Source of the DNA: Selenomonadaceae bacterium
GTDB taxonomy: Bacteria > Bacillota > Negativicutes > Selenomonadales > Selenomonadaceae
Direction of reading: 5' to 3'
Assembly (NCBI GenBank): GCA_017470715.1
Contig: JAFUYE010000119.1
Location: forward strand, 7,024-71,023
DNA: 64,000 bases
A program made the translations under genes and the position numbers. Each line of letters begins with the position of its first letter. The stretch's first letter is position 1. Shown piece after piece: positions 9,902-30,524 of the stretch. The notes under the pieces are model-generated. The model ran no database searches, had not been told where the DNA came from, and saw nothing but the letters and a program-made list of their open reading frames with translations.

Positions 9902-11153
9902 TGATTTTGTCGAAGACTTCGGCGACGGGAACCGTTTCCTGCGCGGAAGTCTCCAAATTTTTTACGGTGACGGTCGAGTTTGCAACTTCGTCGTCGCCGA
10001 CAATCAACGCGAATTTTGCACCGGATTTCGCCGCCTGTTTCATTTGGGCTTTCAAACTTTTTTTGCCGAAGTCCATAGCCGCAGAAAAATTTTTCCGACG
10101 TAAATCCGTCAACAATTTGAACGCGTAAACTTGAGCCGCCTCGCCGCTTGAAACGACGAACGCGGTAATTTTTTTTGTCGATTCGGGCAAAACTCTTTGC
10201 AACTCAAGCGCAAGCAAAATTCGTTCCAAGCCCGCCGCAAAACCGACAGCCGGAGTGTCGTCGCCGCCGATTTCGCGAATCAAGCCGTCGTAACGTCCGC
10301 CGCCCGCAACCGCAGATTGAGCACCCAACGGCGCGTATTGAATTTCAAAAGCGGTTTTCGTGTAATAATCCAGCCCGCGCACAAGTCGATTGTCCACCGT
10401 GAATTCAACGCCCGCCGCAGTCAGCAAATTTTTCACGCCCGAAAAATGTTCGCGGCAGTCGTCGCAAAGACAAGTTTCAATTTTCGGCGCGTCGTCCATG
10501 AATTCTTTGAGCCCGTCGATTTTGCAGTCGAGAATTCGCAGGGGATTTTTTTCCAAACGACGCCGACAATCTCCGCAAAGTTCGTCAGCTTCCGCCGTAA
10601 AAAATTCGGTGAGTTTGCGGCGGAAAATCGGTCGACACGCAGGACAACCGACGGTGTTAATTTTCAACTTCAAGTCGGTCAATCCCAAATCGCGCAGAAA
10701 ATTCCATGCCAACAAAATTATTTCCGCGTCGACGGCGGGATTTTTTTCGCCCAAAGCTTCGACGCCGAATTGATGAAATTCGCGAAGTCGTCCCGCCTGC
10801 GGTCTGTCGTAGCGGAACATTGAGCCGATATAAAAAAGTTTCACCAAGCCCGCGTTGGCGTAAAGTTTGTTCTGCAGATAAGCGCGAACGACCGACGCCG
10901 TGTTTTCGGGTCGCAACGTAATCGAGCGGTTGCCTCGGTCGGTGAAAGTGTACATTTCCTTATCGACAACGTCCGTGCCTTCGCCGATGCCGCGTTGAAA
11001 AAGTTCCGTGTGCTCAAAAGTCGGCGTGCGAATTTCTTCGTAACCGTACAGTGCGCAAAGTTCGCGGATTTTTTTTTCGAGCAACTGCCAGCCCGCGATT
11101 TGTTCGGGCAAAATATCTTTCGTGCCTCTCGGTGCATTCGTCAGCAAAGTCAT
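9894..11153 (-). CDS. hisS: histidine--tRNA ligase
   Basis: 419 aa; class II HisRS motifs RPENTASVVR, FRYDRPQAGRLREFHQ, GGGRYD. Confidence 0.93.
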   Translation of the reverse strand: MTLLTNAPRGTKDILPEQIAGWQLLEKKIRELCALYGYEEIRTPTFEHTELFQRGIGEGTDVVDKEMYTFTDRGNRSITLRPENTASVVRAYLQNKLYANAGLVKLFYIGSMFRYDRPQAGRLREFHQFGVEALGEKNPAVDAEIILLAWNFLRDLGLTDLKLKINTVGCPACRPIFRRKLTEFFTAEADELCGDCRRRLEKNPLRILDCKIDGLKEFMDDAPKIETCLCDDCREHFSGVKNLLTAAGVEFTVDNRLVRGLDYYTKTAFEIQYAPLGAQSAVAGGGRYDGLIREIGGDDTPAVGFAAGLERILLALELQRVLPESTKKITAFVVSSGEAAQVYAFKLLTDLRRKNFSAAMDFGKKSLKAQMKQAAKSGAKFALIVGDDEVANSTVTVKNLETSAQETVPVAEVFDKIII

Positions 11154-11159
11154 ACCTCC

Positions 11160-11933
11160 TCAGATTTTCAATTCGGCGACGGCAAAAAGTACCGCGTTGC
11201 CTGAAATTTTTACACGTTCGCCCGCAACTTCGCAATGCAAAATTCCGCCGCGTTGTGACGCTTGACGTGCAAAAATTTTTGTCTTGCCAAGTTTGTTCGC
11301 CCAATACGGCGCGATTAAACAATGCGTCGAACCGGTCACGGGGTCTTCGGGAACTTTTATTTTCGGCGCGAAGACACGCGACACGCAATCGAAATTTTCA
11401 CCGGCGGCAGTCACGGCTTGCGTCAATCCGTCAAGTTTGCTCAACTTATTCATGTCGGGCGAAAGTTTTTCGACAGTTTCCGCAGAATCCAAAACCATCA
11501 ACAAATCGCGGGCGATATACGCTTCCGAAACCTGCGCGTTGACGGCTTCGCACATTTCGGCTGTTACGGGAATTTTTTTCGGCACATACGCGGGAAAATT
11601 CATCTCGAAAAAATTTCCGTGACGTTCGACGAAAAATTTTCCGCTCAACGTGTCGAAAGTTACTGCGGACAAGTTTCTGTCAATCTGCGTCATGAGCACG
11701 AACGCGGTCGCAAGTGTGGCGTGTCCGCAAAAATTCACTTCGGCGGCGGGCGTAAACCAACGCAAACGAAAAATTTCACCGTCGCGCATGACGAAAGCCG
11801 TTTCGGAAAAATTATTTTCCATTGCAATATTCTGCATTAAATCTTCGGGCGGAAAATTTTCGACGACGCAAACCGCCGCAGGATTTCCGCCGAAAATTTT
11901 TTCCGTGAAGGCGTCAACAATAAATTGTTTCAT
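11160..11933 (-). CDS. PhzF-family isomerase
   Basis: MKQFIVDAFTEKIFGGNPAAVCV N-terminus. GGGAG SD before the ATG at 11933. Confidence 0.8.
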   Translation of the reverse strand: MKQFIVDAFTEKIFGGNPAAVCVVENFPPEDLMQNIAMENNFSETAFVMRDGEIFRLRWFTPAAEVNFCGHATLATAFVLMTQIDRNLSAVTFDTLSGKFFVERHGNFFEMNFPAYVPKKIPVTAEMCEAVNAQVSEAYIARDLLMVLDSAETVEKLSPDMNKLSKLDGLTQAVTAAGENFDCVSRVFAPKIKVPEDPVTGSTHCLIAPYWANKLGKTKIFARQASQRGGILHCEVAGERVKISGNAVLFAVAELKI

Positions 11934-11947
11934 GTAAAAATCTCCCG

Positions 11948-13000
11948 TCAAACAAATTTCAGTCGCCGCAATTCGTTGAGCAAAACTTCAACCTCGTTAT
12001 CTTTGGTCGCCCAGCTTGTCGCCAAACGAACGACAACTTTGTCGGGCGGAAGTTTTTCCCACGTGCGGAATGCTATGTGCTCGGAAAGTTTTCGTGCCTG
12101 CGTTTCGGTCATCGTGACGAAAATTAAATTCGTCGGCGTGTCAACGTAAAGTTCAAAGCCCTGTTTTTTGATTTCGTCGCGAATCTTGTCCGCCGTGTCG
12201 ATTGCCCGTCGCCCGATTTTCATATACAGATCGTCCGTGAACAGCGTATAAAATTGCACGCCGAGAATTCGTCCTTTGGCAAGTAACGCGCCGTGTTGGC
12301 GGATAATCGTCGTGAAATGCGGGATAAGATTTTTCCGCGTAACAACAGCTTCACCGAAAAACGCGCCGCATTTCGTGCCGCCGATTGTAAACGCGTCCGC
12401 AAGTTCGCAAAGATTTTTCAAGGTGACATTGTTTCGCGGATAAGCCAACGCGTAGGCAAGTCGTGCCCCGTCGACGTAAAGCGCAAGATTTTTTTCGCGG
12501 CAAACGGTGCTGAGTTTTCGCAATTCCTCAAGCGTGTACAACGTGCCGTATTCCGTCGGTTGCGAAATATAAACCATGCCCGGAACCGACATATGTTCAT
12601 GCAGTTCGTTGGCGTAAAAATCTTCGACGAAAAGTTTCACGTCGCCCGCCAAAATTTTTCCGTCAACGTGCGGGAGCGTCAAAACTTTGTGCCCCGTGGC
12701 TTCGATTGCGCCCGCTTCGCGAAAGTTGATGTGTCCGCTGTCCGCCGCGATAACACCTTCGTAAGATTTCAAAAGCGCGCTGATGACGACGAAATTTGCC
12801 TGAGTGCCGCCGACCATAAAAGAAATATCGGCTTCGGAAGTTTTGCACGCGTCGCGAATTTTTTTGCGTGCCGCCTCGGAAAATTCGTCTTGCCCGAAAC
12901 CGGCAGTTTTCAGCAGATTTGTTCGGTTGAGATTTGAAATAATCGTGTGGTGTGCGCCTTCCTCGTAATCAGACGCGAAAGAAGTTTTTTTCTCGTTCAT
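11948..13000 (-). CDS. threonine aldolase / beta-eliminating lyase family PLP enzyme
   Basis: GGTQANFVV, LALYVDGARL and FTIGGTKCG (PLP lysine) resemble LtaE-type enzymes. Confidence 0.75.
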   Translation of the reverse strand: MNEKKTSFASDYEEGAHHTIISNLNRTNLLKTAGFGQDEFSEAARKKIRDACKTSEADISFMVGGTQANFVVISALLKSYEGVIAADSGHINFREAGAIEATGHKVLTLPHVDGKILAGDVKLFVEDFYANELHEHMSVPGMVYISQPTEYGTLYTLEELRKLSTVCREKNLALYVDGARLAYALAYPRNNVTLKNLCELADAFTIGGTKCGAFFGEAVVTRKNLIPHFTTIIRQHGALLAKGRILGVQFYTLFTDDLYMKIGRRAIDTADKIRDEIKKQGFELYVDTPTNLIFVTMTETQARKLSEHIAFRTWEKLPPDKVVVRLATSWATKDNEVEVLLNELRRLKFV

Positions 13001-13857
13001 GTCGGTTCACCTGTAAGAATTTTTTTAAACACTTCAAAGTTGGTAAGTTCTTGCGGGCGACAATAAATCGCGAAAACAATTTCCTTAAAGTAACCGTCGA
13101 ATTCGGGCAGAATTTTTTTGTAAGCGCGGGCGACGACTTCGGGATTGTTGCTGAACGCGCCGCAACCGAATGCGCCCGTCACGAAAATTTCTGCACCGTT
13201 GTGAGCGACAACCGTAAACATGTGGCGAAGTCGTTTTTCCTGCAACGCAAAAAGTTCCTCGTCGGAAATCTGCGCGGGATTTGCGTGACCGGGATTGTAA
13301 GCGTTATTCGGACGTTCCCGCAAATTTGGCGCGGCAATCGTGATAACGTCGACTGTGTCCCATTTGTCACGCGGCAGGCGCGCAGGTTTGTCAACGTCGC
13401 TTTTGCAGATGATAATTTCGGGCGTGTAAATGCAGGCGTCGTCGTAAAGCGAATCGGCACGTTCGCGATTGACTTTGTAATAGCGTCGAAAATTTTCGTC
13501 GGTGTTGAGCGCGGGATAGAGCGTCGAACAACGGCAAAGAGCTTCCTCCTGCGCACGCGAACCGTGTTTGACGCCGCCGCCGGGGTTTGTCGCCGATGCG
13601 AAATTGTGAACTGCGATTCGCGCTTCCAAATGTTTTCGCTGAGCGGAAACGGCTGCCTCGAACGAACGCTTGCGAACGACCGTCACGGCTGTTTTTTTGA
13701 ATTTTTTCGCGGGCAACGACGGATAATCTTGTGCGCCGTAAAATTTCGTGCCTGTAATCGACGTGCGTACCGCCTCGCGCAGAAATTCATCTGTCGTGTA
13801 AAATTTTTCCGTGTCGAAAAAAATATCAACCAAATTGTCTTTGCTCACGTAAGCCAT
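12997..13857 (-). CDS. bacterial-type poly(ADP-ribose) glycohydrolase-like macrodomain protein (DUF2263/TIGR02452)
   Basis: PARG signature GGG-X7-QEE (NPGGGVKHGSRAQEE). GGAGGT SD 7 nt before the ATG at 13857. Confidence 0.75.
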   Translation of the reverse strand: MAYVSKDNLVDIFFDTEKFYTTDEFLREAVRTSITGTKFYGAQDYPSLPAKKFKKTAVTVVRKRSFEAAVSAQRKHLEARIAVHNFASATNPGGGVKHGSRAQEEALCRCSTLYPALNTDENFRRYYKVNRERADSLYDDACIYTPEIIICKSDVDKPARLPRDKWDTVDVITIAAPNLRERPNNAYNPGHANPAQISDEELFALQEKRLRHMFTVVAHNGAEIFVTGAFGCGAFSNNPEVVARAYKKILPEFDGYFKEIVFAIYCRPQELTNFEVFKKILTGEPT

Positions 13858-15421
13858 CAATGTTACCTCCGTTCTCGGCAATTTCGGGCGGGCTGTCGAC
13901 GGGTTGATAAACCGCCGCAAGAGCCGCCTCGCGTCTCGCAATGTACCTGTCCACGTCGCGCATGTAAGTCAATAAATCTTTGGCGTTAAAGGCGGTATGC
14001 AGGAAAACTTCTTTTTGATCGGGCACTTTCGTCGACGCTGCCGAACCGACGCCCAAAATCGTTTGACGTTCGCCGATAATCTGCACGTTGTAAAGTCCCG
14101 CGCCGCCTTTGTGACACCAGCCGACATTTTCAATTTGCCCGCTCATGGAACTTTGTCGGTAAAGATAGTACGGCAAATAATTTTCGTCACGCAAAACTTT
14201 ATCCGCGAACGTCGCCATTTTTTGAACTTCGTTGTCGGCGGGCAAGCGAAAATCTTCCGGCGTGTTTATTTCATCCGCCAAAAGTTTTTGTATCGTCGAG
14301 CCGCGTTTAATCGCCAGCGCGTGCAAAGTTATATCGTCGGGCTTGAGCGACAAAACTTTTTGCAAACTGTCTTTGAAGTCCGCAAAATTTTCGCCGGGCA
14401 AGCCCAAAATTAAATCCGTGTTGATGAGCCAATCGCCCGAATTTCGCAGTTCGTTAAAAACTCGCGTGACATCTTCGACGGTGTGAGCGCGTCCGACAAG
14501 GTCAAGCGTGCGTTGTTGCATTGTCTGGGGATTGACGCTGACACGCGTGACGCGAAATTTTTTCAACGCGGAAATTTTTTCGGCGGTAATCGTATCGGGT
14601 CGCCCGCATTCGACGGTAAATTCTTCAACGTCGTCCGTGTGAAAATTGTCGAAAACTTTGGCAAGCATTTCCGCAAAAAATTTTTCGGGCAACGCAGTCG
14701 GTGTGCCGCCGCCGATATAAATCGTCTGAACTTTCAGCCCGTAACGTTTAATCGAATTCGCCGCCGCTTCAATGTCGCGTGTCAAAACTTTCATGAAGTC
14801 CGCAACTTTTTCGTCCGACGGCAACACGAACGACGGGAACGAGCAATACAGGCAACGCGTCCTGCAAAACGGAATTCCGACGTAAACGCCGACGGTTTTC
14901 GCGTCGCACTTGATTAGCGGCAGTTGACGGGTCGCAACTTCGGTCAATAATGCGGCTTTGTCCAAGTCCGTCAAAAAATCCTTGCAAAGTCGTCGCGAAA
15001 TTTTGTCGCGGTCAATGACGCCGTGACTTGTTATGCCGAAACCCGAATCAAGCCAGCGTTGAATAATTTTCGTGGGACGCACGCCGAATAAAATTCCGTA
15101 AGGCACCGTGTCGAGCCCGAAGTTGTCGACGAGCAAGACATAAAGATTTTTTTTGACGAGACGATTTATTTCCGCGCCGAGTCTTTCGTCACGACGAGCC
15201 ACGGAAATTGTGCGGAAAAATTTTGTCGAGCCGCCGATGACGATTTTTATTCGCGTGATGACTTTGTCGCCGAAAACTTCATTAAAAATTTCCAGCGCGT
15301 CCAAATCCGCCGATTCGTTCGCACGTGCCTGAACGACGTTGAGCGAATTGAGAACTTCGACGATAATTTTTTCAAAGTCACCGCCGCCGAGGAGTTTCAA
15401 AACTTTAAACGTGACACGCAA
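13826..15421 (-). CDS. HemN/HemZ-like radical SAM protein (oxygen-independent coproporphyrinogen oxidase family)
   Basis: CxxxCxxC (CRTRCLYC) radical-SAM cluster motif. ~530 aa with an N-terminal extension as in HemZ. TTG start with a GGGGAGG SD. Confidence 0.8.
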   Translation of the reverse strand: MRVTFKVLKLLGGGDFEKIIVEVLNSLNVVQARANESADLDALEIFNEVFGDKVITRIKIVIGGSTKFFRTISVARRDERLGAEINRLVKKNLYVLLVDNFGLDTVPYGILFGVRPTKIIQRWLDSGFGITSHGVIDRDKISRRLCKDFLTDLDKAALLTEVATRQLPLIKCDAKTVGVYVGIPFCRTRCLYCSFPSFVLPSDEKVADFMKVLTRDIEAAANSIKRYGLKVQTIYIGGGTPTALPEKFFAEMLAKVFDNFHTDDVEEFTVECGRPDTITAEKISALKKFRVTRVSVNPQTMQQRTLDLVGRAHTVEDVTRVFNELRNSGDWLINTDLILGLPGENFADFKDSLQKVLSLKPDDITLHALAIKRGSTIQKLLADEINTPEDFRLPADNEVQKMATFADKVLRDENYLPYYLYRQSSMSGQIENVGWCHKGGAGLYNVQIIGERQTILGVGSAASTKVPDQKEVFLHTAFNAKDLLTYMRDVDRYIARREAALAAVYQPVDSPPEIAENGGNIDGLREQRQFG

Positions 15422-18941: not shown

Positions 18942-19790
18942 TCAAAAAATTATTTCGTGCGGGACAACTTCGGCGTCGTGATTTGCCAAAGATTCAATGC
19001 AATTTTCCGACAAACTCATTTCGCGAATCCACAGCAACGATTTAAACGCAAGTTCTTCGTCCAAAGCCGTACCGGGCGGAATTAAATCCTGCCACGATTT
19101 TGACGCATAACCGCCGTCCGAAAACAGCAAAACGAATTTGCCGCCGCTGTTTAGTTTCACCGCCGTCAAGCCGCTTGTGTGACCGGGAATATTTACCAAC
19201 TCGATACTGCCGTCGCCGAACAAGTCGAAACTTTTGCCGACTGAACCGACGCCCGTATTTTTGAAATGAAACGTCTCGAATTTGATGCCGTCCCACATGC
19301 TTGACACGTAGCGAATCGGATATTTTTCGGTATCTTGAAGTTCAGCCGCGCTCACGAGAATTTTTTTCGCATTCGCCACGGATTTTAAACCGCTTGCATG
19401 ATCCGTGTGCAGGTGCGTCATTATGACAAAATCCAAATCTTCGGGCGCGATATTCAAAGCCGCAAGTTGTTCGACAATCGATTGACCTTCGGGCAAAATT
19501 CCTTGATTCAACAAAAAATGTCCAAGCCCCATGTGTTTGACTTGTGCGCGTCGATTGTATTCGCCGTCGGGGCTTATGTCGCGGTGCCAGCCCGTGTCGA
19601 CAAGAATTTTATAATTGCCGTGCTCAATCAAGTAAGCCGAAACGGGCAACCAAATTCGATTTCGCCGCCCGTAAAGCGACAGCAACGACATTTGAAACGG
19701 ATTGGGATTTTTCTGCGCGTCTTTGAACGGCAACGCGTGCGAAACATAAACTTTGCCCGTATGAAACACTCGGATTTTCAAAGTAATCAC
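18942..19790 (-). CDS. MBL-fold metallo-hydrolase (lactonase-like)
   Basis: HLHTDHASG (HxHxDH) motif. The start codon is uncertain within the first 4 codons. Confidence 0.75.
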   Translation of the reverse strand: MITLKIRVFHTGKVYVSHALPFKDAQKNPNPFQMSLLSLYGRRNRIWLPVSAYLIEHGNYKILVDTGWHRDISPDGEYNRRAQVKHMGLGHFLLNQGILPEGQSIVEQLAALNIAPEDLDFVIMTHLHTDHASGLKSVANAKKILVSAAELQDTEKYPIRYVSSMWDGIKFETFHFKNTGVGSVGKSFDLFGDGSIELVNIPGHTSGLTAVKLNSGGKFVLLFSDGGYASKSWQDLIPPGTALDEELAFKSLLWIREMSLSENCIESLANHDAEVVPHEIIF

Positions 19791-20046
19791 TCCGTGAATT
19801 TTTCAAAAGCCTAACACACGACGAATCAAATGGCAAGCGCGGCAAAAATTTTCAGCTTAAATACATGTCGCAAGGCAAAATTGTTGATATTATACATTTA
19901 ATCGAAGCCTATAAAAAATAAAGGAGTGATTCAAATTGCCGAATCAAATGATGCGCCAAATCATGATTGAAAATTTTCAGGATTCGTTGCGGCTTGTTCG
20001 TCACTTGATGAATTTCAGCGTCTAGGATTTTGCTGCGGCACTCGGC

Positions 20047-20922
20047 GTGACGAGCGAAACCGTCAATCATCTTGAGACGAAAAAAATCAAAATGACCGCG
20101 ACGCAATATCTTGCAATCGCCGCGTTGACGGACAGTTATTTCGCGAATCATGCGGAACTTTTGCCGAAACTCAAGGCGGTTATCGACAGCGACGGAAAAA
20201 GTTACGGCGAAGAATACGAAACATCTTTTCGCGGCAATTCGCTGTTGCAACGCTGGTTTGAAGATTTTATCGACTTCGACGACGTGACGGACGATTTCCC
20301 TGCGGACGAAGAATTTTTCGACGACGATGAAGTTGATTCGGACGACGAAGATTTTCCCGACGAAAAACTTTGGGGCTTGGCGCAGAATTATAAAGTTTTC
20401 CTTGACGCCGAAATTTTGCTTGCCGAGGACGCGGAAAATTTCACCGAAAATCTGACTGCGGCATTTGAAGCGGCGAACGATAAAGTCATCATGCCGTTGC
20501 GCTCCGTCGAACAACTTCAAGATTCGGCAAATCAAGACACGGAATTTCAAGAAAATATTTCGCAGGCAATGTTGCTTATCAAAAAACTGCAAGCGAACGG
20601 CGTTTTGCAAATTCACGGCGAAGAAACCGACCCCGACTTTCATGACACGATTATTCAAGTTTTCGGGCGTTTCAAAAGCAAATATCCGCTTTGCCTCGTC
20701 ACGCCGAACGAACAACTTGCACGCGAAATTTTGTCGCTCAACGATTCCGACGACGAGGACGCTTTTGAAATTGCGGCGGCTTTCGTCGAAGACGGCATGA
20801 TTAACTTTTATGTCGCGGAAGAAGATTCTGCGGAAGATTTTGCAGATGACGCGGAAACTGATTCGGACGCGCCCGAAGAAAATTTTACGGACAAAAAGTT
20901 TAACGGTTGGTCGGAACTGTAA
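20047..20922 (+). CDS. acidic protein with a truncated XRE-type HTH and a degenerate PIN-like domain; first gene of the kinase/vWA/PP2C cassette
   Basis: Track ORF. The reading frame continues upstream to TTG 19936 (AAGGAG SD) but is broken by TAG 20023-20025 inside the HTH. D/E-rich linker. The C-terminal half aligns by eye with the N-terminal domain of the next gene. Confidence 0.6.
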   Translation: MTSETVNHLETKKIKMTATQYLAIAALTDSYFANHAELLPKLKAVIDSDGKSYGEEYETSFRGNSLLQRWFEDFIDFDDVTDDFPADEEFFDDDEVDSDDEDFPDEKLWGLAQNYKVFLDAEILLAEDAENFTENLTAAFEAANDKVIMPLRSVEQLQDSANQDTEFQENISQAMLLIKKLQANGVLQIHGEETDPDFHDTIIQVFGRFKSKYPLCLVTPNEQLAREILSLNDSDDEDAFEIAAAFVEDGMINFYVAEEDSAEDFADDAETDSDAPEENFTDKKFNGWSEL

Positions 20923-20936
20923 GGGAGTGTTCGCTC

Positions 20937-23312
20937 ATGGTGAAAAATCCCAACGAAATTCAATCGGAATTTTTGGAACGTTGCGTCCGCGATTGCGACA
21001 GGATTTTTATCGACACGTGCAGTTTTTTGGAAGAAACCATGTACGATTTTTTTCAAAACATTGTGCCGATTCTTGAGCGCGAACAAAAAACCGTCATTGT
21101 TCCGCTGGCGGTTTGCCAAGAATTGGAGCGATTCGCGAACAATCCCGCCGAATGCCGAAAAGAACATCCCGATAATCCCAACTTGAACAAATTGGCGATT
21201 CATGCCTGCGAAACAATTAACGTCCTGAAGCGGGCTAATATCGTTCAAATTTTTGCCGACCCCGACGATAAAAAATTCGCCGACAATATTTTTCTGTATG
21301 TGTTCCTGAAAATCCGGCTGAAATACAACGTGTTGTTTATCACGCAGGACAACGGGCTTGCACACGACGCATGCGACATTTTCAAAGACAGTCGTTCCGT
21401 CAAAGGCGTCAAAAAAATTCTGGTCTGCAAGATTGTCAAAAACGGTTACCTGAAAAATTTTTCCGACGACAAGCCGAAAAAATTTCCGCAACCGGTCAAG
21501 CCGTCATCCGAAAATATTCCGCCGAATGAACGCTTTGCATTTGCCAATGAAGTCGTCGATATCGAAGGAAATTTGCCCGTCACTAAAATTCCCGTCGAAG
21601 GCGAATACGTTACGGCGGTTCGCAACGGTCAAACGAAACAAATTCGCCTGATTGAAGAAGTCGGCTCCGGCGGCGAAGGTTCCGTTTACAAAACCGATTT
21701 CGACGGTTATGTCGCGAAAATTTACAAGCCCGAAAAAATTACGCGCCTGCGTCACGAAAAACTTAAACTTATGCTCTCCAAAGACATCAACTGCGAAGGC
21801 GTCTGTTTTCCGCTTGCAATGATTCACAATCAACGCAACGAATTTGTCGGTTATCTTATGCGTGCGGCGTCCGGTAAAGATTTGGGCAAAAGCGTTTTCA
21901 TGCCGATGTTGCTGAAAAAATATTTCCCGAAATGGAACAGAGTCGACACCGTTCAACTTTGCGTGACGATTCTCAAAAAAATTAAGTATCTGCATGACCG
22001 CAACGTTATTCTCGGCGACATCAACCCGTACAATATTTTGGTCGTTTCGCCGACGGAAGTTTATTTCGTCGACACGGACAGTTATCAGGTCGAAGGTTTC
22101 ATTTGTCCCGTCGGAATGCCGCTTTTCACCGCGCCCGAACTTCAAAAGAAAAAATACGGTCTGCGAACTTTGGGCAACGAAAATTTTGCGGTGACGACTT
22201 TGCTGTTCATGATTATGCACCCCGGCAAGCCGCCTTACGCAATGCAGGACGGCGAAGGCATCGTCGAAAACATTATCAAGGGCGAATTTTCTTACCCGCT
22301 CGGCGAACGCAAGACCGGCAAAGTGCCGCAAGGTCCGTGGCGTTTTTGCTGGAGCCATTTGACGTACAAAATCAAAGAGGCGTTCTACGAAACTTTTTGG
22401 CGCGACGGCATGTATCACGACGAAAAAAATCGTCCCGGCACGGGCTTTTGGCTCAGGCTGTTTGAGTACTATCTCAAGTTGCTTAAAAACGGGACGATGA
22501 CTGCAAATGATGAAGAGTCAATTTTAATTTTCCCGACACGTTTCAAAAGAGAGAAAGACAAAATTTACGCCAAGTGCAAGCTTTGCGGCAAGGAATTCGT
22601 CGAGGACTCACTTGAACAGGGCATTTGCCGCGCTTGCCTTCACGACGGCGAAAAATATCAATGCGAACGTTGCGGCGGCGAAATAATTTACACCAACTAC
22701 CAAAAATACATCAAGCGTGCCAAGCGTTACAAAATTTGTCGTGCCTGCTTTGAAAGGACGAATACCATCTTTGAACGGCGCAGTTGCAAAGATTGCGGGC
22801 GCACGTTCGAGATAACTTACGGGCAAAAAGAATTTTTCGACGCGAAAGGCATGAGCTTGCCGACTCGTTGCGAGGTTTGTCGAAAAAAGCCGCGTCCGTC
22901 GCCGACGGTTCGTCACACGCCGACAACCGTGACAATGCCGCCGCGCCCGACACCGTCGCAACCCGTCGAGCCGCCGAAGAAAAACGGTTGGTGCTTTATC
23001 ACAACTGCCGTCTGCGAATATTTGGGCAAGCCCGATGATTGTTTCGAGTTGACAACGCTCAGAAATTTTCGCGACAACTGGTTGGCACTTCAAACCGGCG
23101 GCAAAGAAGAAATTCGCGAGTATTACGAAATTGCGCCGAAGATTGTCGAAAAATTGGCTGCGTCCGACGAAAAAGATTCGCTGTACGAAAAAATTCGGCT
23201 GGATTATATCGAGCCGTGTTTGGAAGAAATTTTGCACGGGCACAACGAAAATTGCCGCGCACGCTATCGCGAAATGGTTTTGATGCTCAAGCAAAAATTT
23301 TCGATTGATTAA
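20937..23312 (+). CDS. PIN-like domain / Ser-Thr protein kinase / multiple zinc-ribbon fusion protein (TerY-P-type kinase)
   Basis: ATG 20937 after an AAGGGAG SD. Kinase motifs: GSGGEGSVYK, VAKIYK, LGDINPYNIL, DTDSY, TAPE. N-terminal IFIDTCSF / VIVPLAVCQELE / LFITQDNG. C-terminal run of at least four CxxC pairs. Confidence 0.8.
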   Translation: MVKNPNEIQSEFLERCVRDCDRIFIDTCSFLEETMYDFFQNIVPILEREQKTVIVPLAVCQELERFANNPAECRKEHPDNPNLNKLAIHACETINVLKRANIVQIFADPDDKKFADNIFLYVFLKIRLKYNVLFITQDNGLAHDACDIFKDSRSVKGVKKILVCKIVKNGYLKNFSDDKPKKFPQPVKPSSENIPPNERFAFANEVVDIEGNLPVTKIPVEGEYVTAVRNGQTKQIRLIEEVGSGGEGSVYKTDFDGYVAKIYKPEKITRLRHEKLKLMLSKDINCEGVCFPLAMIHNQRNEFVGYLMRAASGKDLGKSVFMPMLLKKYFPKWNRVDTVQLCVTILKKIKYLHDRNVILGDINPYNILVVSPTEVYFVDTDSYQVEGFICPVGMPLFTAPELQKKKYGLRTLGNENFAVTTLLFMIMHPGKPPYAMQDGEGIVENIIKGEFSYPLGERKTGKVPQGPWRFCWSHLTYKIKEAFYETFWRDGMYHDEKNRPGTGFWLRLFEYYLKLLKNGTMTANDEESILIFPTRFKREKDKIYAKCKLCGKEFVEDSLEQGICRACLHDGEKYQCERCGGEIIYTNYQKYIKRAKRYKICRACFERTNTIFERRSCKDCGRTFEITYGQKEFFDAKGMSLPTRCEVCRKKPRPSPTVRHTPTTVTMPPRPTPSQPVEPPKKNGWCFITTAVCEYLGKPDDCFELTTLRNFRDNWLALQTGGKEEIREYYEIAPKIVEKLAASDEKDSLYEKIRLDYIEPCLEEILHGHNENCRARYREMVLMLKQKFSID

Positions 23313-23331
23313 TTCTGAGGAGGTTTTTTAC

Positions 23332-24111
23332 ATGAATGATTTGTTGAGGAAACAAGACCTTGAATCGAATCCGACGCCGCGAGTTCCGATTTGTCTTTGT
23401 CTGGACGTGAGCGGCTCAATGGGCAGAATTGTCGGCGGCAATGTTCAAAACACGGGACGGCGCGAATATCACGACGGAAAATGGTGGAATATCGTCGAAG
23501 GCGGAATTACCGCGTTGCAAGAGATGATTGGCGGCGTCAATCTTTTTTACGACAACTTGCTTGAAGATGACGTGGCGCGCTATTCGGCGGAAATTTGCGT
23601 CGTAACTTTCGGCGGCAATTCGCCCGAACTTATTTTGGACTTCGCGAATTTGGACAGACAAGAATCGGAACGTCAACAAAAAATTTCCGCGTTGGAAGCT
23701 CACGGCGAAACTCCGTTGGGCGAGGCTGTCAACATGGCTTTGGATTGTCTGGACACGCGCAAACGCGAATTCAAAGATGCCGGCGTCGATTATTTTCAAC
23801 CGTGGCTTGTTTTGATGACCGACGGCGAACCCAACGGCTCAACTGCCGAATTGAACCGCGCCATTTCCCGCACGAACGAATTGGCTAACAATCGCAGATT
23901 AACGATTTTCCCGATTGGTATCGGCGAAGAAGCGGATATGAATTGTCTTGCAAAATTTTCGCCGAAACGCCCGCCGCTCCGTTTAAAAGGCATGAACTTT
24001 AAAGGTTTCTTCGAGTGGCTCAGTGCCAGCGTTTCCAGAACTTCGCAATCAATGCCCGGCGACAAAATCAAGCTTGACCTTGACGGTCTTAAAGGTTGGG
24101 CAGATTTGTAA
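23332..24111 (+). CDS. vWA-domain protein (TerY-like)
   Basis: GAGGAGG SD. MIDAS motif DVSGSMG, then LVLMTDGEPNG. Confidence 0.85.
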   Translation: MNDLLRKQDLESNPTPRVPICLCLDVSGSMGRIVGGNVQNTGRREYHDGKWWNIVEGGITALQEMIGGVNLFYDNLLEDDVARYSAEICVVTFGGNSPELILDFANLDRQESERQQKISALEAHGETPLGEAVNMALDCLDTRKREFKDAGVDYFQPWLVLMTDGEPNGSTAELNRAISRTNELANNRRLTIFPIGIGEEADMNCLAKFSPKRPPLRLKGMNFKGFFEWLSASVSRTSQSMPGDKIKLDLDGLKGWADL

Positions 24112-24125
24112 GGAGCAAATTTTTT

Positions 24126-25127
24126 ATGGAATGGAAATCTGTTTGTTGCGCGGTGCAGGGCAAAGGTCACTCGAAAAAAAATATTCCCTGCCAAGACAAA
24201 GTTGCGCGGCTTGAAATGAATGGCGTACAAGTCATTGCTTTGGCGGACGGCGCGGGCTCGGCGTCAATGTCACATTTCGGCGCGGAATGTGTCGTCGACA
24301 GCGTTTCAAAATTCGTCGCGGAAAATTTTCTTGATTTAATCGCGCAGGACGACGGACGAATTGTCAAGCAAGAAATTTTGTCCGTTGCATTGCAGGCTTT
24401 GAACGACGCGGCGAAAATTCATGACTGCACGTTGAAAGATTTGGCGTCGACGTTGCTGGTTGCGGCTGTCGGTGACGGAAAATTTTTCCTTGTACATTTG
24501 GGCGACGGCGTTATCGGTTACTTAAATGACGCGGGCTTGAAGACTGCCTCGACGCCCGACAACGGCGAATTTTCCAACGAGACGGTTTTTGTCACGTCAA
24601 CAAATGCCGCCGCGCACATGCGACTTTACAAAGGCTTGCTCAAAAAAATTTCGGGCTTTATCTTGATGAGCGACGGCAGCGAACAAAGTTTGTACAACAA
24701 GCGCAATAAAAATTTGGCTCCCGCCGTCAAACGATTAATGCACCGCACATGTTTGGTCGACGCGGAAATTTTGACGCCGCAACTTGAAGACGCGATTAAA
24801 TCGGTTATCCTCGACAACACGCAGGACGATTGCAGTATCGCGATATTGGCGCGGAATTCCGAACAGTTGCCGCCGCTGAACGAATTGCCGCTGTCCGAAC
24901 GTCAAGAACTTTTTCGTATCGACGGAAGTTCTGCCTTTCGCAAAGTTCGCCGAAAAATTTTTCGATGCGATAAAATATGTGCTCTCTTGGCAAAACCTTT
25001 GACGTTAAAGCAGTTGGCGCGCAAACTTCATTTGAAACCGCATTACGCCGAAAAAAAATTACGTCGACTCACGGACGCGGGCATTGTGACACGAACGGCG
25101 AACGGCTTTAAAACTTACGGCAACTGA
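24126..25127 (+). CDS. PP2C-like phosphatase with a C-terminal winged-helix segment
   Basis: AAGGAG SD. QGKGHSKKNIPCQDKV...ALADGAGSA...LMSDG pattern of PP2C_2-type proteins. C-terminal LKQLARKLHLKPHYAEKKLRRLTDAGIV looks like a wHTH. Confidence 0.75.
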   Translation: MEWKSVCCAVQGKGHSKKNIPCQDKVARLEMNGVQVIALADGAGSASMSHFGAECVVDSVSKFVAENFLDLIAQDDGRIVKQEILSVALQALNDAAKIHDCTLKDLASTLLVAAVGDGKFFLVHLGDGVIGYLNDAGLKTASTPDNGEFSNETVFVTSTNAAAHMRLYKGLLKKISGFILMSDGSEQSLYNKRNKNLAPAVKRLMHRTCLVDAEILTPQLEDAIKSVILDNTQDDCSIAILARNSEQLPPLNELPLSERQELFRIDGSSAFRKVRRKIFRCDKICALLAKPLTLKQLARKLHLKPHYAEKKLRRLTDAGIVTRTANGFKTYGN

Positions 25128-25149
25128 AAAGTTTTTTGCATAACGAAAA

Positions 25150-25178
25150 ATCCCCGACGCGCTGTCGAGGATTTTTTT
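25150..25178 (+). terminator. intrinsic terminator ending the cassette
   Basis: CCCCGACgcgctGTCGAGG hairpin followed by ATTTTTTTAT. Confidence 0.6.
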
Positions 25179-25204
25179 ATGTCTGACGTAATAATATTCA
25201 GTTT

Positions 25205-25280
25205 TGGTGGAGACGAGGGGGATCGAACCCCTGACCTCTTGACTGCCAGTCAAACGCTCTCCCAGCTGAGCTACGCCCCC
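25205..25280 (-). tRNA. tRNA-Ala (GGC)
   Basis: The reverse complement folds as a cloverleaf: GGGGGCGTAGCTCAG...; anticodon loop CTGGCAG; TPsiC arm GGTTCGATCC; encoded CCA. Confidence 0.9.
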
Positions 25281-25357
25281 AACGCGTGCGATTATAAACG
25301 TTGCGTCGTGCGTTGTCAAGAAAAAAAATCCACCCGAAATTTCCGAGCGGATAATTT

Positions 25358-30293: not shown

Positions 30294-30370
30294 TGGTGGC
30301 GGCACACGGATTTGAACCGCGGACACAGCGGGTATGAACCGCTTGCTCTAGCCAACTGAGCTATGCCGCC
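30294..30370 (-). tRNA. tRNA-Met (CAT), elongator type
   Basis: Reverse complement GGCGGCATAGCTCAGTTGG...; anticodon loop TTCATAC; CCA encoded. Confidence 0.85.
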
Positions 30371-30446
30371 TGGAGCTGATGACCAGGATTGAACTGGTGA
30401 CCTTATCCTTACCAAGGATACGCTCTGCCGACTGAGCTACATCAGC
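30371..30446 (-). tRNA. tRNA-Thr (GGT)
   Basis: Reverse complement GCTGATGTAGCTCAGTCGG...; anticodon loop TTGGTAA; CCA encoded. Confidence 0.85.
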
Positions 30447-30448
30447 GT

Positions 30449-30524
<76 letters not shown>

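Follow-up and report, generated by a model that had tools for sequence, protein, structure and literature searches.

We analysed a window of 64,000 nucleotides (nt) from a Selenomonadaceae bacterium (GCA_017470715.1, contig JAFUYE010000119.1, positions 7,024-71,023, forward strand; coordinates below are those of the window), and in it a cassette of four genes whose core encodes a Ser/Thr kinase with a predicted PIN ribonuclease (RNase) domain at its N-terminus, a vWA protein and a PP2C phosphatase. On balance, we lean towards the view that this cassette is a self-contained, horizontally mobile phospho-switch of the TerY-phosphorylation (TerY-P) class, that is, a conflict module in which phosphorylation would gate the kinase-fused PIN RNase. 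The three core genes form an evolutionarily fixed unit whose catalytic and metal-binding residues are strongly conserved, and the cassette is a so far undescribed, unnamed and widespread variant of the TerY-P class. Its genes and their parts are as follows.

19936-20922, + strand: gene 1, with an XRE-type helix-turn-helix (HTH), a poly-acidic linker, a degenerate PIN-like domain and a C-terminal GWSEL tail; a premature TAG lies inside
20023-20025, + strand: premature stop TAG, in frame at codon 30 of gene 1 and within its HTH
20937-23312, + strand: gene 2, 791 residues, with PIN, Ser/Thr kinase, triple zinc ribbon and CFI-box; 'zinc-ribbon domain containing protein' in the NCBI annotation
20994-21461, + strand: PIN domain of gene 2 (about residues 20-175), SMG6/Fcf1-like (PIN_4)
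21639-22556, + strand: kinase domain and helical extension of gene 2 (about residues 235-540)
22575-22880, + strand: three CxxC...CxxC zinc-ribbon / treble-clef modules of gene 2 (residues 547-648)
22986-23309, + strand: CFI-box, the C-terminal domain of gene 2 (residues 684-791; NCBIfam NF041770, E of 2.6e-16, 59 bits against a cut-off of 40)
23332-24111, + strand: gene 3, a TerY-like vWA protein of 259 residues with a complete metal-ion-dependent adhesion site (MIDAS), the Ser/Thr-rich segment FEWLSASVSRTSQSMPG and a C-terminal GWADL
24007-24060, + strand: Ser/Thr-rich segment of gene 3 (about residues 226-243), just before the tail
20905-20919 (gene 1, GWSEL) and 24094-24108 (gene 3, GWADL), + strand: GW-x-[DE]-[LI] tails at the extreme C-terminus
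24126-25127, + strand: gene 4, 333 residues, PP2C phosphatase over about residues 1-250
24960-25112, + strand: C-terminal winged-helix domain of gene 4 (residues 279-329)

Gene 2 joins a PIN domain to a kinase. Taken alone, the N-terminal domain matched Pfam PIN_4 with 24.2 bits (gathering cut-off 21.9), as did 19 of 20 homologues, and its acidic residues D26, E62, D116 and D138 were invariant in sets of 30 and of 20 homologues. The AlphaFold2 (AF2) model of the domain (predicted local distance difference test score, pLDDT, 81.9) has an alternating beta-alpha pattern, and when it was compared with the PDB using Foldseek the top matches were the PIN domains of SMG6, Utp24/Fcf1 and EST1A (probability 1.00, template-modelling score 0.44-0.61). 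Fold and four-acidic-residue active site are those of the PIN_4 / SMG6-Fcf1(Utp24) nucleases, which suggests that the domain is an SMG6/Fcf1-type PIN ribonuclease, predicted to be catalytically competent. The kinase domain that follows matched Pfam Pkinase (2.4e-6), and the family profile matched kinases in the PDB (1.1e-7). Its Gly-loop (G245-G-E-G248), K261, G360-D-I-N-P-x-N366 and D379-x-D-S motifs are invariant across homologues, and the domain is a divergent Ser/Thr kinase resembling eukaryotic protein kinases (ePK-like).

Behind the kinase, the zinc ribbons matched zf_Tbcl (27.9 bits, cut-off 24) and DZR_2, and their Cys pairs (C547/550/564/567, C576/579/601/604 and C617/620/645/648) are invariant or nearly so. 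A Pro/Ser/Thr linker leads from the ribbons to the CFI-box, which has five invariant cysteines (C686, C693, C702, C761 and C773) and was modelled by AF2 as a five-helix bundle (pLDDT 81.3); no structural relative was found in the PDB or BFVD, where the best E values were 1.8 and 4.5. An earlier note on this DNA had proposed an N-terminal PIN-like domain and a C-terminal zinc-ribbon/Cys-helical region on the kinase, and both proposals are borne out. In close relatives of the kinase-zinc-ribbon core (P0222, P0254, P0149 and P0210), the PIN domain is replaced or preceded by a NACHT nucleoside triphosphatase (NTPase), TPR repeats or long unannotated regions; such swapping of N-terminal modules is usual in conflict systems. 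Parts of gene 2 were also seen in phages. Podovirus MW202701 (L096, 412-3396) encodes, between its portal and major capsid genes, a 994-residue hypothetical protein whose C-terminus is a CFI-box with 31% identity to gene-2 residues 686-790, and Agathobaculum phages carry the zinc-ribbon segment alone.

The product of gene 3 matched Pfam VWA (8e-8) and also VWA_2. Its MIDAS has the sequence DVSGSM, and across 77 homologues the MIDAS residues D25-x-S27-x-S29, T127 and D164 are at least 95% conserved. In the same homologues S231, S233, S238, S240, P242 and G243 of the Ser/Thr-rich segment are near-invariant, and the TerY protein of ter plasmids has a recognisable counterpart, FKWVSASISVGSQ. This conservation makes the segment a candidate phospho-acceptor of the triad kinase. 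The tail shared by gene 1 and the vWA protein is a new observation, absent from the earlier note. The strict form GW-x-[DE]-[LI] ends 61 of the 2455 open reading frames (ORFs) of related loci, every one of them within the cassette; a looser motif was present in 78 of 84 vWA homologues, and a slightly relaxed form in nearly all gene-1 homologues. The tail may be a common docking peptide specific to the cassette. The phosphatase encoded by gene 4 matched PP2C_2 (2.2e-46), with its metal-binding residues D24, D41, D127, D183, D234 and D235 at least 95% conserved in 75 homologues, and its C-terminus matched MarR, HTH_20 and ArsR-type winged HTH (wHTH) domains at E values of 1e-4 to 1e-3, in agreement with the winged-helix-like end noticed before.

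The four ORFs lie 14, 19 and 14 nt apart. A strong Shine-Dalgarno sequence precedes every start (AGGAG, GGGAG, GAGGAGG and AGGAG for genes 1 to 4), and those of genes 2-4 abut the stop codon of the preceding gene. The cassette is a genuine, tightly packed operon. The earlier description of a four-gene cassette with short gaps and a terminator of its own stands, except that gene 1 is not intact from 19936. Three features flank the operon.

19885-19893, + strand: putative extended -10 element, TGATATTAT, about 45 nt upstream of the gene-1 start
25147-25179, no strand: hairpin with flanking A-run and T-run, a probable bidirectional terminator (free energy -18.9 kcal/mol, z = -2.75)
25205-25280, convergent to the cassette: tRNA-Ala(GGC), its 3' end facing the hairpin

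The hairpin is probably the terminator common to gene 4 and the convergent tRNA gene, which has a perfect TTGACA-17-TATAAT promoter on the minus strand at 25291-25319. Upstream of gene 1, a consensus scan did not find a canonical -35/-10 pair, and the operator search returned nothing beyond a weak A/T-rich inverted repeat. The promoter assignment at 19885-19893 is putative and was read from the sequence; its TGnTATTAT pattern is kept in the closest relative, a Selenomonadales metagenome-assembled genome (MAG; L007), although the adjoining spacer diverges.

To describe the distribution of the cassette, we scanned one genome per species and obtained 80 loci. Wherever the contig allows, essentially every locus has its core genes arranged as PIN-kinase, vWA, PP2C. 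Full-length relatives of the kinase number more than 120 at E<1e-228 (90%-identity clusters), and there are 826 clusters (50% identity) at E<=1e-30 among 1.84 billion representatives, and about two thirds of the best 150 relatives align from the PIN domain onward. No zinc ribbons, CFI-box or wHTH tail could be detected in the most divergent members. The hosts belong to at least 8 phyla (Bacillota, Spirochaetota, Bacteroidota, Campylobacterota, Actinomycetota, Pseudomonadota, Verrucomicrobiota, Desulfobacterota and Planctomycetota) and include Selenomonadales, Lachnospiraceae, Oscillospiraceae, Clostridium, Epulonipiscium, Bacilli, Treponema and other spirochaetes, Prevotella, Campylobacterota, Coriobacteriia and other Actinomycetota, several Gammaproteobacteria, Desulfovibrio, Akkermansiaceae and Thermoguttaceae. 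One contig labelled Candidatus Saccharibacteria (CAMZGF010000009.1, L009) holds a cassette 69% identical to that of the window, with a gene-1 homologue; this appears to be a binning error and not a genuine case in Patescibacteria. Some cassettes (L004, 8389-9933) have a second vWA paralogue, ending in GWAEL, between the kinase and vWA genes, and the same insert encodes a 249-residue protein with weak S1 and beta-propeller matches.

The core unit moves among plasmids, conjugative or integrative elements and chromosomes of many phyla. On a Lysinibacillus plasmid the cassette lies between IS1182 copies and a MobQ relaxase, and at another locus it adjoins two large serine recombinases. On a TraG/VirD4 conjugative element (L001), it is followed directly by a second, divergent triad. 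That triad (10469-13975) consists of a 433-residue kinase, a 263-residue protein with a DTSGSM MIDAS and an acidic GW-rich tail, and a 455-residue PP2C; the two tandem triads may work together. One identical four-gene allele was present in 288 assembly blocks, in which its neighbours vary among relaxase/NikA, a type I restriction-modification (R-M) system with AAA_15/HNH, and integrase with primase, and single alleles occur in hundreds of gut metagenome assemblies. No full-length match to the cassette was found in 50,697 phage genomes or in IMG/VR. A phage origin was therefore rejected, and we consider the cassette a host or plasmid gene set rather than a phage one.

The TerY-P triad of a vWA protein, a PP2C-like phosphatase and a Ser/Thr kinase was reportedly defined by Anantharaman, Iyer and Aravind (2012), and Gao et al. 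(2020) are said to have reported such a triad as anti-phage. As far as can be judged from its proteins, the cassette has every feature of a triad in the sense of Anantharaman et al.: a MIDAS-bearing vWA protein, a PP2C, a kinase with a zinc ribbon, and conserved co-occurrence of the three. In tblastn, gene 3 found TerY genes on 2299 ter plasmids of enterobacteria, with 25% identity across 88% of the gene-3 protein (E=4e-7). On one of these, the IncHI2 plasmid CP067063, terW, three TerY vWA genes, a PP2C and a kinase lie side by side; in BLASTP, gene 4 matched the PP2C (E=3e-13) and gene 2 matched the kinase over residues 298-505 (E=2e-6). The similarities show that the core proteins are remote homologues of the ter-plasmid triad and, together with the Pfam matches, confirm the vWA/PP2C/kinase triad that the earlier note had recognised. 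The two triads share their three components, a zinc ribbon after the kinase, a location on mobile elements and, in the vWA protein, a C-terminal FxW[LV]SxS[VI]S motif. They differ in order, which is kinase-vWA-PP2C in the cassette and vWA(s)-PP2C-kinase on ter plasmids, and in the kinase, which only in the cassette has an N-terminal PIN domain and a C-terminal CFI-box. Moreover, the phosphatase has 333 residues with a terminal wHTH in the one and 545 residues in the other, and the vWA protein ends in GWxEL instead of the PPPPPExxxVL of canonical ter-plasmid TerY. No ter genes were seen adjoining the cassette, which has an optional HTH-pseudo-PIN gene upstream.

Other known systems resemble the cassette in part. 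TerY-P triads have been proposed to be phospho-switches linked to restriction or suicide systems, and a TerY-P-like triad is protective against T7-like phages (PMC11090510, PMC4978471, PMC7699616); a C-terminal zinc ribbon is listed for TerY-P kinases (PMC11090510). The TerY-P modules of Type II/III-A CoCoNuT, which are McrBC-related, likewise combine vWA, PP2C and a Ser/Thr kinase with a C-terminal zinc ribbon, and have been proposed to be a signalling add-on to nuclease effectors (Bell et al. 2024, PMC11090510). There, however, HEPN and the other nucleases are encoded as proteins of their own within a large McrBC/helicase system, whereas in the cassette the PIN domain is fused to the kinase and McrBC/CnuH genes are not adjacent. 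Stand-alone defence kinases (Stk2, PD-T4-6) are ePK-like Ser/Thr kinases, as is gene 2; the matches are confined to the catalytic core, and these kinases lack both the pairing with vWA and PP2C and the PIN domain. By description, the Deinococcus radiodurans operon DRA0331-0334 (vWA, Ser/Thr protein kinase (STPK), FHA and PP2C; bioRxiv 10.64898/2026.01.23.701218) is a comparable push-pull phospho-signalling set, and the actinobacterial GAP1-N2 GTPase-linked sets of kinase (with zinc ribbon), PP2C and vWA (Kaur et al. 2020, PMC7159879) are, also by description, similar in composition. Both have FHA docking domains or GTPase partners and neither has the PIN fusion, the CFI-box or GWxEL tails. Kinase, vWA and PP2C all go unmentioned in the main text of the 2017 PIN-superfamily survey. 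In the accessible literature, which excludes Anantharaman 2012, no description of a TerY-type triad with a PIN-kinase, of the pseudo-PIN paralogue of gene 1 or of the CFI-box was found, and the suggestion that a PIN-fused kinase with a degenerate paralogue had not been described is in line with this result.

Gene 1 differs from the core genes in being both optional and damaged. Its start is a TTG at 19936 with AGGAG 7 nt upstream. In the closest relative, which has the same flanking genes and a kinase 82% identical to that of the window, codon 30 is GAG (Glu), likewise in L008, and all 24 of the other gene-1 homologues that were extracted are intact ORFs of 267-354 residues. The identical TAG occurs in the ENA re-assembly ERZ28654714 and the Logan assembly SRR12529323, so that three assemblies in all, possibly from one sample, agree, and an assembly error is unlikely. 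Recoding or read-through was also considered and rejected, since GAG stands at this codon in the relative, family members differ at the position, and TAG serves as an ordinary stop in the window, where it ends 3 of 48 long ORFs. We conclude that in this genome a nonsense mutation has truncated gene 1 and deprived it of its DNA-binding head; genes 2-4 are intact. The NCBI annotation covers just the 291-residue remainder from GTG 20047 (MBR1647212.1, 'hypothetical protein'), and a product of 276-291 residues with the pseudo-PIN domain and the tail could be made from ATG 20092 or GTG 20047.

The domain composition that had been read from gene 1 (HTH, poly-acidic linker and degenerate copy of the PIN domain) was supported by profile comparison. 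HTH_3 scored above the cut-off in intact homologues and 17 bits in the repaired window copy, and some homologues weakly matched an Xre-like antitoxin HTH. The C-terminal domain is homologous to the PIN domain of gene 2 (BLASTP 6e-9; hhalign probability 99.8, E=7e-30). Among 25 family members, acidic positions 1 and 2 are invariant, position 3 is D, N, S or G, and position 4 is D, N, E or S, with N in the window copy. This pattern, in which the four-acidic-residue active site is incomplete, indicates a degenerate PIN paralogue, or pseudo-PIN. A gene-1 homologue lies upstream of the core in about 24-28 of the 80 loci, roughly a third. The expectation that the four genes would co-occur elsewhere therefore holds for the three core genes and fails for gene 1. 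With a DNA-binding head and a PIN-type interaction domain, gene 1 loosely resembles VapB-VapC, but it is fused, degenerate and optional, whereas a VapBC-like antitoxin would be paired with its toxin at every locus. Since about two thirds of the family lack gene 1 and a stop codon interrupts it here, it cannot be an obligatory antitoxin, decoy or antidote, and the toxin/decoy pairing that had been suggested for it is overstated.

Taken together, the conserved operon and active sites, the mobility, the homology to the ter triad, some defence genes among the neighbours and the NACHT/TPR variants are the reasons for which we regard the cassette as probably a conflict or anti-phage module. We propose that, in the resting state, PP2C would keep the system dephosphorylated. 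A trigger, most likely an invading element, would activate the kinase; it would be sensed through the MIDAS of the vWA protein, through the Cys-rich CFI-box or through the nucleic-acid-binding zinc ribbons. The vWA protein would then be phosphorylated in its Ser/Thr-rich C-terminal segment by the kinase, which might also act on itself or on host targets. Phosphorylation of the vWA protein would change the arrangement of the complex and so allow RNA cleavage by the fused PIN domain, which would arrest growth or destroy the transcripts of the invader in a manner resembling abortive infection. On the simplest reading gene 1, where present, would be an accessory XRE-type autoregulator; its pseudo-PIN domain would probably pair with the PIN domain of the kinase, and its GWxEL tail would use, and compete for, the docking site of the vWA tail. 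A more specific version, which we put forward tentatively and do not expect to hold, is that the PIN-kinase/vWA/PP2C cassettes are immune systems in which a kinase gates a ribonuclease, and that they form a widespread family, as yet unrecognised, which abounds in Bacillota of the gut and rumen. In this version, assembly would be controlled by the tails, docking on the vWA MIDAS, the kinase or the phosphatase, phosphorylation of the vWA Ser/Thr residues would be a second control, and the pseudo-PIN would act as a decoy that silences the catalytic PIN domain until infection.

Several observations weigh against a defence role. The case for it is built from architecture and context alone, and the trigger, the substrate, the gating of the PIN domain by phosphorylation and the role of the tail are all inferred. 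Gene 1 is dispensable in most family members and broken here, which weakens any model that needs it. The anti-phage system of the Gao type, from E. coli G3/10 (NZ_CP060075 59618-62877, named by the NCBI annotation pipeline PGAP and located via the sequence in a bioRxiv supplement), gave no significant BLASTP similarity (vWA E=5.2, phosphatase E=0.22, kinase E=0.81), and the link that the earlier note had drawn to it finds no support in homology. Like the cassette, that system is one operon of a vWA protein with a DxSxS MIDAS, a PP2C-type phosphatase and a Ser/Thr kinase. It adjoins a type I R-M system, its order is vWA-PP2C-kinase, and it has no PIN domain, CFI-box, wHTH or fourth gene. The kinase C-terminus of the anti-phage TerY-P system is reported as an oligonucleotide/oligosaccharide-binding (OB) fold (PMC11090510), unlike the three zinc ribbons and all-helical CFI-box of the cassette. 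Because there is no significant sequence similarity, the gene order is different and an OB fold stands in place of the zinc ribbon, the anti-phage evidence applies by analogy and not by transfer through homology.

PADLOC contributed a further negative result, in that none of the four proteins matched a defence-specific model beyond generic kinase matches; in the kinase region, gene 2 weakly matched PD-T4-6, MkoA, mad6 and Stk2 (E of 1e-5 or weaker). No match named TerY-P was returned for the cassette proteins, and the canonical ter-plasmid triad and the second triad on the conjugative element were missed as well. As PADLOC also misses the canonical triad, its negative result carries no weight. 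Similarly, the NCBIfam library of hidden Markov models (HMMs) holds no TerY-P model that even the E. coli G3/10 proteins match, and the PGAP names 'TerY-P' must therefore come from other rules.

The remaining points against defence also count in favour of the first of three rival explanations, which we take in descending weight: signalling in non-immune stress or physiology, an addiction module, and local decay. In the first of these, the kinase and PP2C would toggle the vWA protein in response to metal, redox or damage, a cue for which the sensor would be either the MIDAS or the Cys-rich ribbons and CFI-box, with transcriptional outputs through the wHTH of PP2C and the HTH of gene 1 and an RNA-processing output through PIN. 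A parallel would be the tellurite/stress role that has been proposed for the classical TerY triads, or the vWA-STPK-FHA-PP2C module DRA0331-0334 of Deinococcus. In several Selenomonadaceae species the cassette occupies the same chromosomal site, with the same RecO, DUF502 and aminotransferase genes upstream and the same gene downstream. Its base composition is that of its surroundings, and no tRNA-derived, att-like direct repeats were found flanking it. Because such repeats are absent and the site is occupied in related species, we rejected a recent integration at tRNA-Ala, and the cassette that was earlier described as inserted beside that gene is not a fresh arrival there. In this lineage the cassette is an old resident that has been kept vertically at a stable site between housekeeping genes. 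In addition, a census of the two nearest ORFs on each side at about 45 loci returned mostly unrelated housekeeping genes and a few recombinase or mobilisation genes. A role in stress signalling would fit both results, as well as the two DNA-binding domains within the cassette, the fact that the closest detectable relatives are ter-operon triads and not the anti-phage one, and the action of the similar Deinococcus operon in DNA-damage signalling (bioRxiv 10.64898/2026.01.23.701218).

A conflict module, on the other hand, better accounts for the patchy spread over at least 8 phyla, for near-identical units in differing mobile contexts, for the existence of NACHT and TPR variants of the kinase, and for a fused nuclease with an intact active site, which is typical of effectors. 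PADLOC assigned a minority of the neighbours to defence (PsyrT, CARF-HEPN/Csx1, MkoA/MkoC, HerA, mad genes, a type II restriction endonuclease and Cas7), a share above the expectation for random loci, as judged without a formal statistic. In view of these points, stress signalling appears to us an unlikely explanation, if one that deserves serious attention.

We consider it improbable that the cassette is a toxin-antitoxin-like addiction module that stabilises mobile elements, with PIN as the toxin. In that case the toxin would be restrained by the phosphatase, the HTH-pseudo-PIN protein or both, and the HTH-pseudo-PIN protein would also repress the operon, as in VapB-VapC. Its occurrence on plasmids and on integrative conjugative and mobilisable elements would suit this explanation, as would the XRE-type HTH and PIN-like interaction domain of gene 1 and the weak antitoxin-type match of some homologues. 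Yet most loci have no gene 1, the truncation here leaves an intact PIN-kinase that is evidently tolerated, many copies are chromosomal and at a stable site, and the system is far larger and more elaborate than type II toxin-antitoxin pairs. That the nonsense codon, which three assemblies contain and 24 of 24 homologues lack, is the first step of pseudogenisation and the module in this genome a non-functional, decaying remnant is also a poor prospect, since genes 2-4 are full length, keep all their catalytic and metal-binding residues and have strong ribosome-binding sites. Moreover, most of the family does without gene 1, and its shortened product could retain the pseudo-PIN domain and the tail.

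Two further features of the surroundings were recorded. Directly upstream of the cassette, a metallo-beta-lactamase-fold gene (18942-19790, minus strand) has a weak precomputed Pfam match to the Anti-Pycsar protein Apyc1; it is absent from the otherwise syntenic locus of the closest relative (L007/L008). Downstream of ribosomal-protein genes lies a tight tRNA cluster, Met-Thr-Met (30294-30524, minus strand).

TerY-P triads are long-predicted phospho-signalling conflict systems that have been mechanistically opaque. We regard the present cassette as moderately interesting, because its predicted effector is part of the kinase protein and because it belongs to a large family that PADLOC fails to recognise. 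Here the predicted output, a PIN RNase with an intact active site, is physically joined to the kinase, and the candidate phospho-acceptor and the shared tail can be read from alignments, so that the switch is testable with few point mutants. If the cassette is a defence system, then 826 clusters in at least 8 phyla that PADLOC does not recognise would amount to a sizeable blind spot. Eukaryotic RNase L and Ire1 combine a kinase with a nuclease, and a defence function would make the cassette a prokaryotic example that, by analogy, follows the same kinase-plus-nuclease logic.

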